NCBI GenBank assembly: GCA_964388035.1
Contig: CAYLZE010000007.1
Location: 32,001 to 96,000, forward strand
Length of the DNA: 64,000 bases
Reading direction: 5' to 3'
Source: an uncultured archaeon
GTDB lineage: Archaea; Asgardarchaeota; Lokiarchaeia; Sigyniarchaeales; SOKP01
Position numbers and translations under genes: made by a program. The first letter of the stretch is position 1. Every line of letters begins with the position of its first letter. Shown here piece by piece: positions 22,735 through 33,750 of the stretch. Below the pieces are notes generated by a model that saw nothing but the letters and a program-made list of their open reading frames with translations, searched no databases and was not told the DNA's origin.

Positions 22735-22839
22735 TAGTCCCGCCCGGATTTGAACCGGGGTCTCGGGATTTCTCCACGTCCGAACGGCTAATAAGAACAT
22801 TTCAGAGTCCCAAATGCTTGGCCGCTACACCACGGGACT
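22735..22839 (-). tRNA. tRNA-Gln(CTG) with 32-nt canonical 37/38 intron (22770-22801)
   Basis: Acceptor AGTCCCG/CGGGACT (A1-U72), T-arm CCCGG TTCAAAT CCGGG, BHB helix CTCT/GGAG; 73 nt spliced. Confidence 0.95.
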
Positions 22840-29753: not shown

Positions 29754-31943
29754 ATGCCCCGTCGAAAAGAAATTTCGGAAATATTAAAATTAATGGAAAA
29801 ACCCGCTTCAACAAGAAATTTTGGACTCATAGGACATATTGATCATGGTAAAACCACCCTTTCTGACTCTCTCTTGAGTGAAGCAGGGTTGTTATCTCCG
29901 GAATTAGCAGGAGAAGCTCGAGTGCTGGACTATTTAGAAGAGGAACAAAAAAGAGGAATTACGATGAAGTCTACAAATATCTCCTTATATTATGAAAAAA
30001 CTGCGGAAAAGTCTGAGCCGTTCTTGATAAATTTAGTAGATACTCCGGGACATTTAGATTTTAGTGGAAAGGTCACTCGGGCATTACGACTAATCGACGG
30101 TGTAGTGGTCGTGGTAGATGCTGTAGAAGAAATCATCACGCAATCAGAAACGGTCATTAAACAAGCATTGGAGGAAAATGTAAAGCCGGTCCTTTATATA
30201 AATAAAGTAGATCGACTCATTCGAGAATTGAGTCTCACGGATGATCAAATAAAAGAAAAATATGTTCGGATCATTAAAGATTTTAATACTTTAATTGAAC
30301 GTTATGCTGATGAAGCATTTAAAGAAGAATGGAAGGTTTCTCCTGCAAAGGGCACGGTTGCCTTCGGCTCAGCCCTTCATAAATGGGGGTTTACCTTAAA
30401 AATCTTAGAAAAAAGCAGCTTGAAATTTAAAGATATACGAGAAAGATACAAGAAAGAAACCATATCAGAAAGGAAGTATGAAGATCTTCCCGTATATTTT
30501 CCCATTCATGAAGCCATTTTGGAGATGGTAGTCAATCACATGCCAAATCCTCAAGAAGCTCAGAAATATCGTATTAAAAAAATCTGGGATGGAGACATGA
30601 ATACAAAAGCGGCTAAAGCCATGGTATCCTGCGATCCAAAAGGACCTTTAATAATTTGCTTGAGCAAAGTACAAGCAGATAAACATGGTTTGATCGCTAC
30701 CGGAAGAATATTTTCCGGTTCCTGCACGGAACGAAAAGAAATCTTCTTAATGAGAGAAAATGAGTATGGGACTATTCGAAGGGTAGCAATTTTTATGGGA
30801 CAGCGAAGAGAACAAGTGAAGAGCATTCCTGTAGGGAACATCGTGGCGATTGAAGGATTAAAGATGCTTAAAAGTGGAGAAACTCTGGTGGAACCGACAA
30901 TTCTCAATGAAATGGTACCATTTGAGAATGTAAAATATGTATCAACGCCTGTTGTTACTGTTTCTATTGAACCGGAGTATTTAAGGGAATTGGATCAAAT
31001 GAAAAGAATCATAGAAGAATTATTAATAGAAGATCCTAACCTAAATTTTGAAATTAATGAGGAGAATGGAGAATTCCTATTGTCAGGAATGGGCCCGCTC
31101 CATTTAGAAGTTACAACAAATGAAATAGAAAAAAGAGGAGTTAAAGTCTCAACATCTCCCCCGCGTCCCGTATTTAAAGAATCTTGCAAGAAGAATTCTT
31201 CGCTCATTGAAATTCAATCTCAAAATGAACAAAATAAGTTAAAAATTTATATTGAACGATTGGACGAAATAACCGTTCAATTTTTTCACAATACTAATTA
31301 TCACTCTATAAAACCAAAAGAATATCTTAAATCTGTTTTGAAAACGAAAACATCTCTCAGCGAAGAAGAAGTGCAAAAATTCTGGCAATGCGATGAAGAT
31401 CAAAATCTATTATTATGTGATAATTATGAACAACTGGATGAGTATATACAAAAAAATATCCTTGAAATAGTTCAGAAAGTTCATTTAAATGGCCCTCTTG
31501 CAGGTGAAAAGCTCACTCAGGTAAAGATTGCCATCAAGGAATTAACTTTAAACGACATCAATGAAGATACTGCTTTTACGGAATTATCTGCCCTATTATA
31601 CGAGGGAATAAAACAAGGGTTGAAAGAAGGAGAAATGATTTTCATAGAACCGATATATAGAACTGTTATTCAGATCCCCCCAGCATATATAAAAAATACT
31701 CTTACTATTTTATCTAAAAATGGTGGTAAAATTAAAACCATTAATCAAGAAAAGGAGTATCAAGCCAGCATTGAAGTACTAATTCCCGTTAGAAAATCCC
31801 TTACCTTTGCTGAAGATATTCGTTCTTCCACTTCAGGTCGCGCATTTTGGATGAATGAGTTTTACGCCTTCATGGAAGTACCCCCTCACGAAGCACAAGA
31901 AATAATCAGTACTTTGCGATTTAGAAAAGGATTATCCTGGTAA
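29754..31943 (+). CDS. Elongation factor 2 paralog (aEF-2p-like), diphthamide motif absent
   Basis: GHIDHGKTT, RGITM, DTPGH, NKVD, GMGPLHLE, IRSSTSGRA; the domain IV HRG loop is replaced by NDINEDTAFTE. Confidence 0.85.
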   Translation: MPRRKEISEILKLMEKPASTRNFGLIGHIDHGKTTLSDSLLSEAGLLSPELAGEARVLDYLEEEQKRGITMKSTNISLYYEKTAEKSEPFLINLVDTPGHLDFSGKVTRALRLIDGVVVVVDAVEEIITQSETVIKQALEENVKPVLYINKVDRLIRELSLTDDQIKEKYVRIIKDFNTLIERYADEAFKEEWKVSPAKGTVAFGSALHKWGFTLKILEKSSLKFKDIRERYKKETISERKYEDLPVYFPIHEAILEMVVNHMPNPQEAQKYRIKKIWDGDMNTKAAKAMVSCDPKGPLIICLSKVQADKHGLIATGRIFSGSCTERKEIFLMRENEYGTIRRVAIFMGQRREQVKSIPVGNIVAIEGLKMLKSGETLVEPTILNEMVPFENVKYVSTPVVTVSIEPEYLRELDQMKRIIEELLIEDPNLNFEINEENGEFLLSGMGPLHLEVTTNEIEKRGVKVSTSPPRPVFKESCKKNSSLIEIQSQNEQNKLKIYIERLDEITVQFFHNTNYHSIKPKEYLKSVLKTKTSLSEEEVQKFWQCDEDQNLLLCDNYEQLDEYIQKNILEIVQKVHLNGPLAGEKLTQVKIAIKELTLNDINEDTAFTELSALLYEGIKQGLKEGEMIFIEPIYRTVIQIPPAYIKNTLTILSKNGGKIKTINQEKEYQASIEVLIPVRKSLTFAEDIRSSTSGRAFWMNEFYAFMEVPPHEAQEIISTLRFRKGLSW

Positions 31944-31946
31944 AAA

Positions 31947-32113
31947 TGCGCCCGCCGGGAATTCCGTTCGACTCGAAAAGAGCGCGAGCTTCGAACCCGG
32001 GTCACTGGCTCTTTCCGCTATTTTTCATGCAAGAATAGGCAACAGCATGGGAAGCCAGCATAATACCGTTATACGAGAGGTGAGAAATGTGACCTCTTCT
32101 ATACAACGAGCGC
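31947..32113 (-). tRNA. tRNA-Gly(CCC) with three introns (15/16, 37/38, 59/60)
   Basis: Exons 32113-32099, 32068-32048, 32010-31990 and 31960-31947 join to a 71-nt cloverleaf GCGCTCGTTGTATAGCGGTATTATGCTGGCTTCCCAAGCCAGTGACCCGGGTTCGAATCCCGGCGGGCGCA. Confidence 0.9.
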
Positions 32114-32166
32114 CTTAGAGATTTAATATTAATTTTAATATAATCGTCTGTCATAATTAAACCTTA

Positions 32167-33750
32167 TTATCTTCTTTCTTGAGAGAAGTTAAGGATATAA
32201 TTTTTAACTAAATAATTTGGAACAGCGAATTCGGCAGTTCCTCTTTCAATTGCTTCTCGGGGCATTCCATATAAAACAGCCGTTTCACTTGATTCTGCAA
32301 TAGTTTTTCCTCCTGCCTTTTTGATGGCACCCAAGCCTGCAACTCCGTCCGCCCCCATTCCGGTGAGCAGAATGCCCATGGCTCGATGTTTAAAAACTTT
32401 TGCAACAGAATAAAATAAAACATCGATTGAAGGCAGACAATAGTTTACAGGGGTTCCCTTATAAATTCTAATACTTGGCTTTAGTCCAGATAAAGTAATC
32501 TCCATGTGCCTATTCCCTGGGGCAATGTATACATTTCCAGATTTGATTTCTTGGTTATTTTGGGCAAGGTGTATTGTCATTTTACCAAAATTGTTTAAAA
32601 ATTGAACAAACGAATCAACAAATCCTGCATTTAAATGCTGTACTATTAAGATAGGGCAGGATAAATTTCCAGGAAGCTCTTTAAGGATTGATATTAATGT
32701 TCGAGGGCCGCCAAGGCTCGCACCGATTGCAATTATATTTGATTTTAACTCAATGGTATCCGGATGTTGACTTGTCTGAGAAGAAGGGAATTCTTGGGTG
32801 ACCTGATTCTCGAGTGAAGCATATAAAGCTTTTAAAGGTGATGCACTTTTTTCCTGTACTTTTTCCTCGAGTTCTTTATTATTATCGAGGATTATTGATA
32901 TTTCATCAATCTGAATTTGAGGAGGAGCAGAATTCCTCTTTTTGGAGCTTACTTTTTTAATTATGGGCTGCTTTCTTTCTTCTTTTTTGAATTCAGTTTG
33001 ATGAGCTTTCTCAATATTTTTTAACTTTTTTATAGAAATTTGGTTTTCATTTTTGAAGTAAGAAAGAGGTTTTTTCTCGGCAGAAATTTGTTGAAATATC
33101 TCATTAACAAGCTTTTGTCTTAAAGGCAAAAAAGAATTGCTTTTTGATGCATTCTTTTTTTCTTTTGAAATTAAAGAGTTTGTATCCATCTCTATTTCTT
33201 GACTATCACTTGATTTCCATCGAGTAGATCCAAAAAGTGGATGGGCCCTATTGAGATACTGCCCGAATTTGAAAATATCATTGATATTGCGTTGCCTTAA
33301 GGTTTGTAATTTTTTAACTTTTAATTCTTTGGTATCATACACTCTTTTTATTTGCGATTGACAGGCCAAAATTACTTTATTCAATAACTCTTCTTTAAAA
33401 TTGGGAACCTCCATTGCACCCAAACCTCCTGGTTTAATAATATAATCAAAGGCTCCTAGTAATAAGGCTTGGACACTGGCGTTCATATTTTTTGGATTTA
33501 TTGCAGATAATATAATCGTTGGCAAGGGATTTTCTTCCATGATTTCTCTAAACGCATCTAATCCACTCAATAGAGGCATGATGAGATCCAAGAGCAAAAC
33601 GTCTGGTTTGTGTTCTTTAACTTTTTCAATGGCCTCTAATCCATTTTGGGCTTCTGCTATAACATTTATCTCAATTTGACTTGATAAGATGTTTCTCAAG
33701 ACTTTTCTCATGAATTTAGAATCATCCGCGATAATTACCTTTATCTCCAT
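32167..33750 (-). CDS. cheB: Chemotaxis methylesterase CheB with ~200-aa linker
   Basis: Receiver domain (ADDS, LLDLIMP, IKP) plus esterase (IGASLGGP, VQHL, PSIDVLF, LTGMGADG, YGMP). Confidence 0.93.
   Translation of the reverse strand: MEIKVIIADDSKFMRKVLRNILSSQIEINVIAEAQNGLEAIEKVKEHKPDVLLLDLIMPLLSGLDAFREIMEENPLPTIILSAINPKNMNASVQALLLGAFDYIIKPGGLGAMEVPNFKEELLNKVILACQSQIKRVYDTKELKVKKLQTLRQRNINDIFKFGQYLNRAHPLFGSTRWKSSDSQEIEMDTNSLISKEKKNASKSNSFLPLRQKLVNEIFQQISAEKKPLSYFKNENQISIKKLKNIEKAHQTEFKKEERKQPIIKKVSSKKRNSAPPQIQIDEISIILDNNKELEEKVQEKSASPLKALYASLENQVTQEFPSSQTSQHPDTIELKSNIIAIGASLGGPRTLISILKELPGNLSCPILIVQHLNAGFVDSFVQFLNNFGKMTIHLAQNNQEIKSGNVYIAPGNRHMEITLSGLKPSIRIYKGTPVNYCLPSIDVLFYSVAKVFKHRAMGILLTGMGADGVAGLGAIKKAGGKTIAESSETAVLYGMPREAIERGTAEFAVPNYLVKNYILNFSQERR

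Follow-up and report, generated by a model that had tools for sequence, protein, structure and literature searches.

The window, by which the whole analysed stretch of 64,000 nucleotides is meant, contains on its minus strand (32113..31947) a 167-nt tRNA-Gly(CCC) gene in which three introns separate four exons, and the locus is a real glycine tRNA gene, probably a functional one, from an Asgard archaeon of the Loki type. The original prediction had proposed this gene with introns of 30, 37 and 29 nt, two of them at non-canonical sites; all of the coordinates hold on rechecking, and the 71 nt that remain after removal of the introns are called tRNA-Gly(ccc), with a full cloverleaf, by ARAGORN. 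That this is a tRNA-Gly(CCC) gene whose three introns would be removed to give a 71-nt tRNA can be stated with high confidence.

Anatomy and genomic setting of the gene

Read from G1 (32113) to the discriminator A73 (31947; CCA is not encoded), the gene starts with exon 1 (32099..32113), which supplies the 5' strand of the acceptor stem, U8, U9, the 5' strand of the D-stem, A14 and G15. The 30-nt intron 1 (32069..32098) interrupts the D-loop at 15/16 with a relaxed motif of the HBh' type, and exon 2 (32048..32068) resumes with the 3' part of the D-loop (C16, G18, G19), followed by the 3' strand of the D-stem, G26, the 5' strand of the anticodon stem and the anticodon loop through A37, including the anticodon CCC at positions 34-36 (32049..32051, as identified by ARAGORN). 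Intron 2, of 37 nt (32011..32047), occupies the canonical 37/38 site in a strict hBHBh' motif. Exon 3 (31990..32010) carries A38, the 3' strand of the anticodon stem, a 4-nt variable region with C48, the 5' strand of the T-stem and T-loop positions 54-59, and is separated by the 29-nt intron 3 (31961..31989; T-loop 59/60, with the T-stem as outer helix) from exon 4 (31947..31960), which provides U60, the 3' strands of the T-stem and the acceptor stem, and A73. All of these features lie on the minus strand.

The spliced molecule has an acceptor stem of 7 bp (one G.U), anticodon and T stems of 5 bp each, a variable region of 4 nt and A as its discriminator. Its 4-bp D-stem is made up of a G.U, two Watson-Crick pairs and U13xU22, the last being the only non-pair of the cloverleaf. 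In the ARAGORN drawing, the anticodon loop has 7 nt with U33, CCC and a purine at position 37, as befits a tRNA-Gly(CCC). Glycine identity in archaea and eukaryotes resides in A73, C2:G71, G3:C70, C35 and C36; every one of these elements is present in the spliced tRNA.

The gene occupies a 223-nt gap between a gene for an EF-2 type elongation factor (729 aa; 29754-31943, plus strand), which lies on the lower-numbered side and ends at 31943, and a gene for a CheB-like methylesterase with a receiver domain (a response regulator of 527 aa; 32167-33750, minus strand), which ends at 32167. Directly 3' of A73 comes a run of five T (31942..31946, minus strand) that shares nucleotides with the stop codon of EF-2, the convergent gene; orthologues have T-runs at the equivalent place, and the run is likely to serve as the transcription stop. 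On the other side, TTATATTA (32136..32143, minus strand), spanning -30 to -23, is a candidate TATA box, on what in a genome of 33% G+C is weak evidence. A scan for sigma-70 promoters and intrinsic terminators was set aside as not meaningful for an archaeon. A protein-coding reading of 31947-32113 was rejected, the sole overlapping open reading frame being one of 50 aa and the interval falling into the gap between the EF-2 and CheB-like genes.

Splice motifs, orthologues and the D-loop junction

In all three introns the central helix of a bulge-helix-bulge (BHB) motif is complete (4/4) and stands in the exact register of the splice sites; when the introns were shuffled, a central helix in the given register had P values of 0.033, 0.014 and 0.028 for the three introns. 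Likewise, each has a pair of 3-nt bulges, one on either strand, and the predicted cut follows the second nucleotide of each bulge. At intron 2 (37/38), UUCC (32-35) pairs 4/4 with GGAA, with bulges CA|U and AG|A, an inner helix of 6 bp and an outer helix of 7 bp that is the anticodon stem. At intron 3 (59/60), U54-G57 (UUCG) pairs 4/4 with CGGA of the intron (one G.U; bulges AA|G and AU|U), the T-stem of 5 bp serves as outer helix, and the inner helix consists of a CxA mismatch followed by 3 bp. At intron 1 (15/16), G10-U13 (GUAU) pairs 4/4 with GUAU of the intron (two G.U; bulges AG|A and AA|C); a single unpaired C sets the inner hairpin of 6 bp (AGAGGU/ACCUCU) apart from the central helix, and a proper outer helix is missing. 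Because the flanking helices, h and h', are both present at intron 2, reduced to an outer and a weak inner helix at intron 3 and to an inner one only at intron 1, the motif of intron 2 is classed as strict and the other two as relaxed. They are as the original prediction had described them, namely perfect at 37/38, with a mismatched inner helix at 59/60, and relaxed (GUAU/GUAU) at 15/16.

The splice-site register and the spliced alignment to related genes, which makes no use of the motifs, are two independent lines of evidence, and the three inserts are therefore beyond chance. A single fold of the precursor that holds all three motifs together with the acceptor stem is computed at -52.2 kcal/mol, against -57.8 kcal/mol for the unconstrained minimum free energy (MFE) fold, so that the three splice sites can be presented together.

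Gly(CCC) genes of 11 related genomes were compared by spliced alignment with large gaps permitted in the genome only, and the spliced 71-nt product is identical to them at 56-67 of 71 positions. When a compact Gly(CCC) gene of another genus served as the query (66/72 identity), the inserts were placed behind positions 15, 36 and 54, the last of them displaced by 3 nt through mismatches in the T-loop. The gene has no introns in G009, G014, G015 and G017, one canonical intron in G012, G027 and G029, one 29-nt intron at 15/16 in G022, one intron at 15/16, read as 27 nt, in G001 (a genome of the same genus), one 29-nt intron after position 44 (44/45) in G016, and two introns, at 22/23 and in the T-loop, in G008. 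The 12 Gly(CCC) genes carry 0-3 introns each at six different sites, which shows fast intron turnover within one family. In the same genes pairing holds in 245 of 252 stem cells, with compensatory double changes in 8 of 21 pairs; the U13xU22 of the window gene recurs in G008, the remaining orthologues having G or A at position 22. The 3' flank, formed by the end of the EF-2 gene, is common to the window gene and to those of G022, G015 and G017, and these genes are therefore orthologous. An exact search for intron 1 in a public genome collection, which may omit records of the window's own genome, gave no match.

Where precisely is the D-loop insert cut? Its relaxed motif alone does not set the junction. 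The GUAUA repeat at intron 1 allows three products, positions 14-16 reading AAC, AGC or AGA, and, UAUA being self-complementary, GUAUA can act both as direct repeat and as pairing partner with no duplication required. The orthologues bear out the preference for 15/16 that had been expressed in spite of this ambiguity: all 12 Gly(CCC) genes have G15 and a pyrimidine at 16. Because 15/16 is the only junction that reproduces this arrangement, it is the best choice, though not a proven one, and it would keep the G15-C48 pair.

It is conceivable that the gene is real and that the insert is nevertheless cut at another junction, either within the GUAUA repeat, which would leave A15, or at 16/17 via the all-Watson-Crick helix UAUA/UAUA, which would leave A16, or else that it stays in place, the tRNA then being 101 nt long with an oversized D-loop. 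Shifting the register by +1/+1 likewise yields a 4/4 central helix, the MFE fold pairs UAUA/UAUA, several cuts are equivalent through the repeat, and D-arm inserts are frequently weak in motif, with 33% canonical (bioRxiv 10.64898/2026.10.13.758758). These cuts, however, do not restore the G15 and pyrimidine 16 common to all orthologues, and the 27-nt intron at 15/16 in G001, in our own reading, pairs cleanly as a GUAU/GUAC helix whose bulges are AG|A and AA|U. Retention of the 30-nt insert, in turn, would part G15 from G18/G19, and an EndA of the same loop type, that of A. pernix, cleaves a D-loop BHB intron (PMC3241643). Another junction, or a retained insert, is on balance improbable.

Could the locus, instead, be a decaying pseudogene with accumulated insertions, while tRNA-Gly(UCC), or a Gly(CCC) gene absent from the assembly, takes care of GGG codons? 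In principle, GGG is open to wobble decoding by tRNA-Gly(UCC), and a Gly(CCC) gene therefore need not be essential; moreover, the assembly is incomplete, so that a second Gly(CCC) copy could lie on unassembled DNA, and the D-stem has its one mismatch (U13xU22). Yet exon conservation equals that of the intron-free orthologues, every stem is intact, each insert sits exactly in splice-motif register, the T-run and the conserved genomic position are kept, and 25 other tRNA genes of the genome, single-copy ones included, show the same pattern. A further Gly(CCC) gene, part of the counter-evidence named in the original prediction, was sought by seeded spliced alignment, in which the whole genome (an incomplete MAG of 211 contigs) was gone through twice, and no second locus was found. 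Decay of the gene is thus a most unlikely explanation, and a three-intron tRNA-Gly(CCC) gene with its D-loop intron at 15/16 is the preferred reading.

The tRNA complement and the three glycine genes

The genome to which the window belongs is a MAG of 211 contigs and 5.47 Mb, 96.7% complete with 7.3% contamination and 33% G+C. Standard scans return 22 tRNAs (ARAGORN) or 19 (Rfam tRNA model), and across the whole genome neither scan reports a glycine tRNA. The unspliced tRNA-Gly(CCC) gene was missed by ARAGORN, in the window as in the genome, and by the Rfam tRNA model, at the gathering threshold as at E<=10. This blindness of standard scans had been anticipated; being what is expected of a gene with three introns, it is no evidence against the tRNA-Gly(CCC). 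Intron-containing ARAGORN calls in this genome include several with a wrong anticodon, e.g. Tyr(ata), Phe(aaa) and Stop(tta), because the intron is misplaced. Within the window, the tRNA-Gln(CUG) gene (22735-22839, minus strand) has one canonical 32-nt intron (22801-22770) in a strict BHB (central helix 4/4, inner 6, outer 7); its unspliced form is miscalled as 'tRNA-Pyl(cta)' by ARAGORN, and there is therefore no amber suppressor here.

A census was made by seeded spliced alignment of the whole genome, with references drawn from three related genomes (73 tRNAs), and was read after removal of 3'-end alignment artefacts, the insert load obtained in this way being a lower bound. It comprises 31 tRNA loci, and ARAGORN gives every spliced product the expected anticodon; reference-guided splicing thereby brings the count to 31 tRNA genes or more, the three Gly genes among them, whereas standard scans find only 19-22, which is of consequence for annotation. 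Interrupted genes make up 26 of the 31, with at least two inserts in 12 and at least three in five; the total is ~44 inserts, most of them 28-31 nt, or ~1.4 per gene as a lower bound. The genes with at least three are Gly(CCC), Ile(GAU) (contig C27, 38743-38900), Pro(CGG) (contig C29, 6079-6239), Trp(CCA) (contig C47, 35348-35512) and Pro(GGG) (contig C127, 12671-12834), the last possibly with four. Since five of 31 genes reach this number, the three-intron Gly(CCC) gene is typical of its genome, and the original view of triple-intron tRNAs as rare does not apply here.

The commonest non-canonical site in the genome is the T-loop site 59/60, at which an insert of the same design occurs in 12 of the 31 genes. 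A looser second pass of the census added a single gene, a tRNA-Thr on contig C23; an extension of tRNA-Leu (contig C62) from the same pass was discarded as spurious. About ten expected anticodons were not found in the genome after both passes, and the corresponding genes may be unassembled, without a reference, or too fragmented for detection. A tRNA-SeC(UCA) gene (contig C6, 4052-4205, plus strand) is broken by two inserts of ~30 nt, located behind positions 16 and 75 of the reference. It matches the compact SeC tRNA of G014 at 85/93 positions, and once spliced it is recognised as tRNA-SeC by ARAGORN. Compact SeC tRNAs occur in G009, G014 and G032.

The glycine family is complete in this genome, with three introns in CCC and two each in UCC (contig C50) and GCC (contig C104), and all three isoacceptor genes have a 29-nt intron at 59/60 (CCC, contig C7, 63946-64113; UCC, contig C50, 7695-7822; GCC, contig C104, 16235-16355), a constellation within one genome that may be new. 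In the same-genus genome G001, the CCC and UCC genes are without a T-loop interruption. A T-arm pattern search of 154 genomes of the order found at least one interrupted T-arm of Gly-type sequence in 38, and three only in the genome of the window, with the proviso that some non-Gly tRNAs fit the pattern too and that a few matches in one family look spurious.

What is the origin of these T-loop introns? A short-word BLAST of the three Gly(CCC) introns against the genome gave no further copies, and they are therefore neither a repeat family nor a mobile element. When intron cores were compared with the six constrained 3' bases removed, those of the Gly T-loop introns were weakly alike (UCC-GCC, p ~0.007; CCC-UCC, p ~0.01; CCC-GCC, not significant), and of the 66 pairs compared, UCC-GCC and CCC-UCC take second and joint third place, after a Lys pair. 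The latter, tRNA-Lys(CUU) and tRNA-Lys(UUU) (contigs C10, 5156-5276, and C23, 28642-28765), shares plainly homologous introns not only at 37/38 but also at 59/60, with an intron alignment score of 14 vs at most 4 for all other pairs, which points to gene duplication or conversion after intron gain in the lysine genes.

For the glycine genes, it may be suggested, tentatively and with considerable doubt, that the 29-nt T-loop intron was copied among the three paralogues, e.g. by gene conversion across the 3' halves (T-arm and acceptor), which hardly differ among the three. Three independent gains could account for the trio instead of copying: 59/60 is an insertion hot spot in this genome, as the count of 12/31 genes given above attests, and the similarity of the cores is partly forced by hairpin and T-loop pairing. 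If copying did take place, it would represent a within-isotype route of intron spread, to which the published Asgard tests, which look for at least 80% identity between tRNAs of different type, would be blind; the glycine trio offers a small, testable case for intron spread.

Splicing enzymes and known systems

Two EndA paralogues are found in the genome, each with both EndA Pfam domains (N- and C-terminal). The alpha paralogue (contig C146, 202 aa), whose closest relatives come from MAGs labelled Promethearchaeota and thereby mark the genome as Loki-type, has as its best match the catalytic subunit of the A. pernix enzyme (3p1z_B, E 1e-35, full length) and retains the active-site Tyr, His and Lys; its NKPR aligns to the EKPR of A. 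pernix, that is, to K44/R46 of the crenarchaeal specificity loop. The beta paralogue (contig C33, 200 aa) has Ser at the catalytic-His position of the M. jannaschii enzyme (1a79), as would be expected of a structural beta subunit. The genome thus encodes an (alpha-beta)2 EndA with a crenarchaeal specificity loop (L1/CSL), and with the Lys and Arg of that loop the broad-specificity endonuclease that the original prediction had deemed necessary is at hand. In the A. pernix EndA, K44 is needed for the cleavage of D-loop and relaxed introns (PMC3241643), and an (alpha-beta)2 EndA with the L1 insert has been described from Asgard archaea (PMC5829648). RtcB is encoded in the genome as well.

From the presence of these enzymes, together with the gene anatomy, the motifs and the orthology to compact genes, all of which are observed, we infer how the tRNA-Gly(CCC) precursor would be transcribed, cut and joined. 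The gene would give rise to a precursor of ~167 nt, three of whose arms are lengthened by one intron each. The 3' end of intron 1 would pair with the 5' strand of the D-stem, that of intron 2 with anticodon-loop positions 32-35 and that of intron 3 with T-loop positions 54-57, each pairing forming the 4-bp central helix of a BHB with the cuts two nucleotides into its 3-nt bulges. The (alpha-beta)2 EndA would cut all six sites and RtcB would ligate the four exons, and addition of CCA would yield a 71-nt tRNA reading GGG codons.

To what extent is a gene of this kind new? In Atabeyarchaeia and Freyarchaeia, introns are present in 92-95% of tRNA genes, with several in over half and many of them non-canonical (Valentin-Alvarado et al. 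2024, PMC11291895). A census of 90 Asgard genomes put the load at 2.2 inserts per gene for its focal families and at 0.91 for 'other Asgard families', with up to five in one tRNA gene, located the inserts at BHB boundaries, found (alpha-beta)2 EndA to be widespread, and reported that tRNAscan-SE misses 30% of the inserts, chiefly those of the D-arm (bioRxiv 10.64898/2026.10.13.758758). The present gene and its genome share with these published cases the short inserts, of 22-23 nt in the published median and 28-37 nt here, at canonical, D-arm and T-arm sites and several to a gene, their BHB boundaries, the blindness of standard tools and the (alpha-beta)2 EndA background. They differ in lineage, the published cases belonging to focal families other than the Loki-type (Promethearchaeota) represented here; the main text of the census (10.64898/2026.10.13.758758) does not name Lokiarchaeia. 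The load of ~1.4 inserts per gene, a lower bound, compares with its 0.91 for 'other Asgard families' and 2.2 for the focal families.

Given these publications, the kind is already known, and the Gly(CCC) gene is a further well-supported case and not a discovery: it adds a well-documented Loki-type example to the Asgard tRNA genes rich in EndA-type introns, and leaves knowledge of the splicing mechanism unchanged. With Asgard multi-intron tRNAs in print (PMC11291895; 10.64898/2026.10.13.758758), and up to five inserts among them, triple-intron tRNAs, originally called rare, are not so in this lineage, and Thermoproteales are no more the sole or foremost group for comparison.

Thermoproteales, a group of another phylum, nonetheless offer a close parallel. 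Their tRNAs reportedly have up to three BHB introns, also at non-canonical sites, and a heterotetrameric EndA with the crenarchaeal specificity loop processes these introns (Sugahara 2008; Fujishima 2010). Among them, different tRNA genes contain related intron sequences, 28% in families of at least 80% identity, whereas the three introns of the window gene are without copies in the genome and the Gly T-loop introns are weakly alike. The nearest likeness for the D-loop intron is that of A. pernix pre-tRNA-Thr(UGU) (PMC3241643; PDB 3p1z), a D-loop BHB intron whose removal requires K44 and its specificity loop. By comparison, the present motif is looser and lacks an outer helix, and the activity of the Asgard enzyme is a prediction from sequence; its alpha subunit aligns end to end with 3p1z_B, with both the K and the R of the loop kept.
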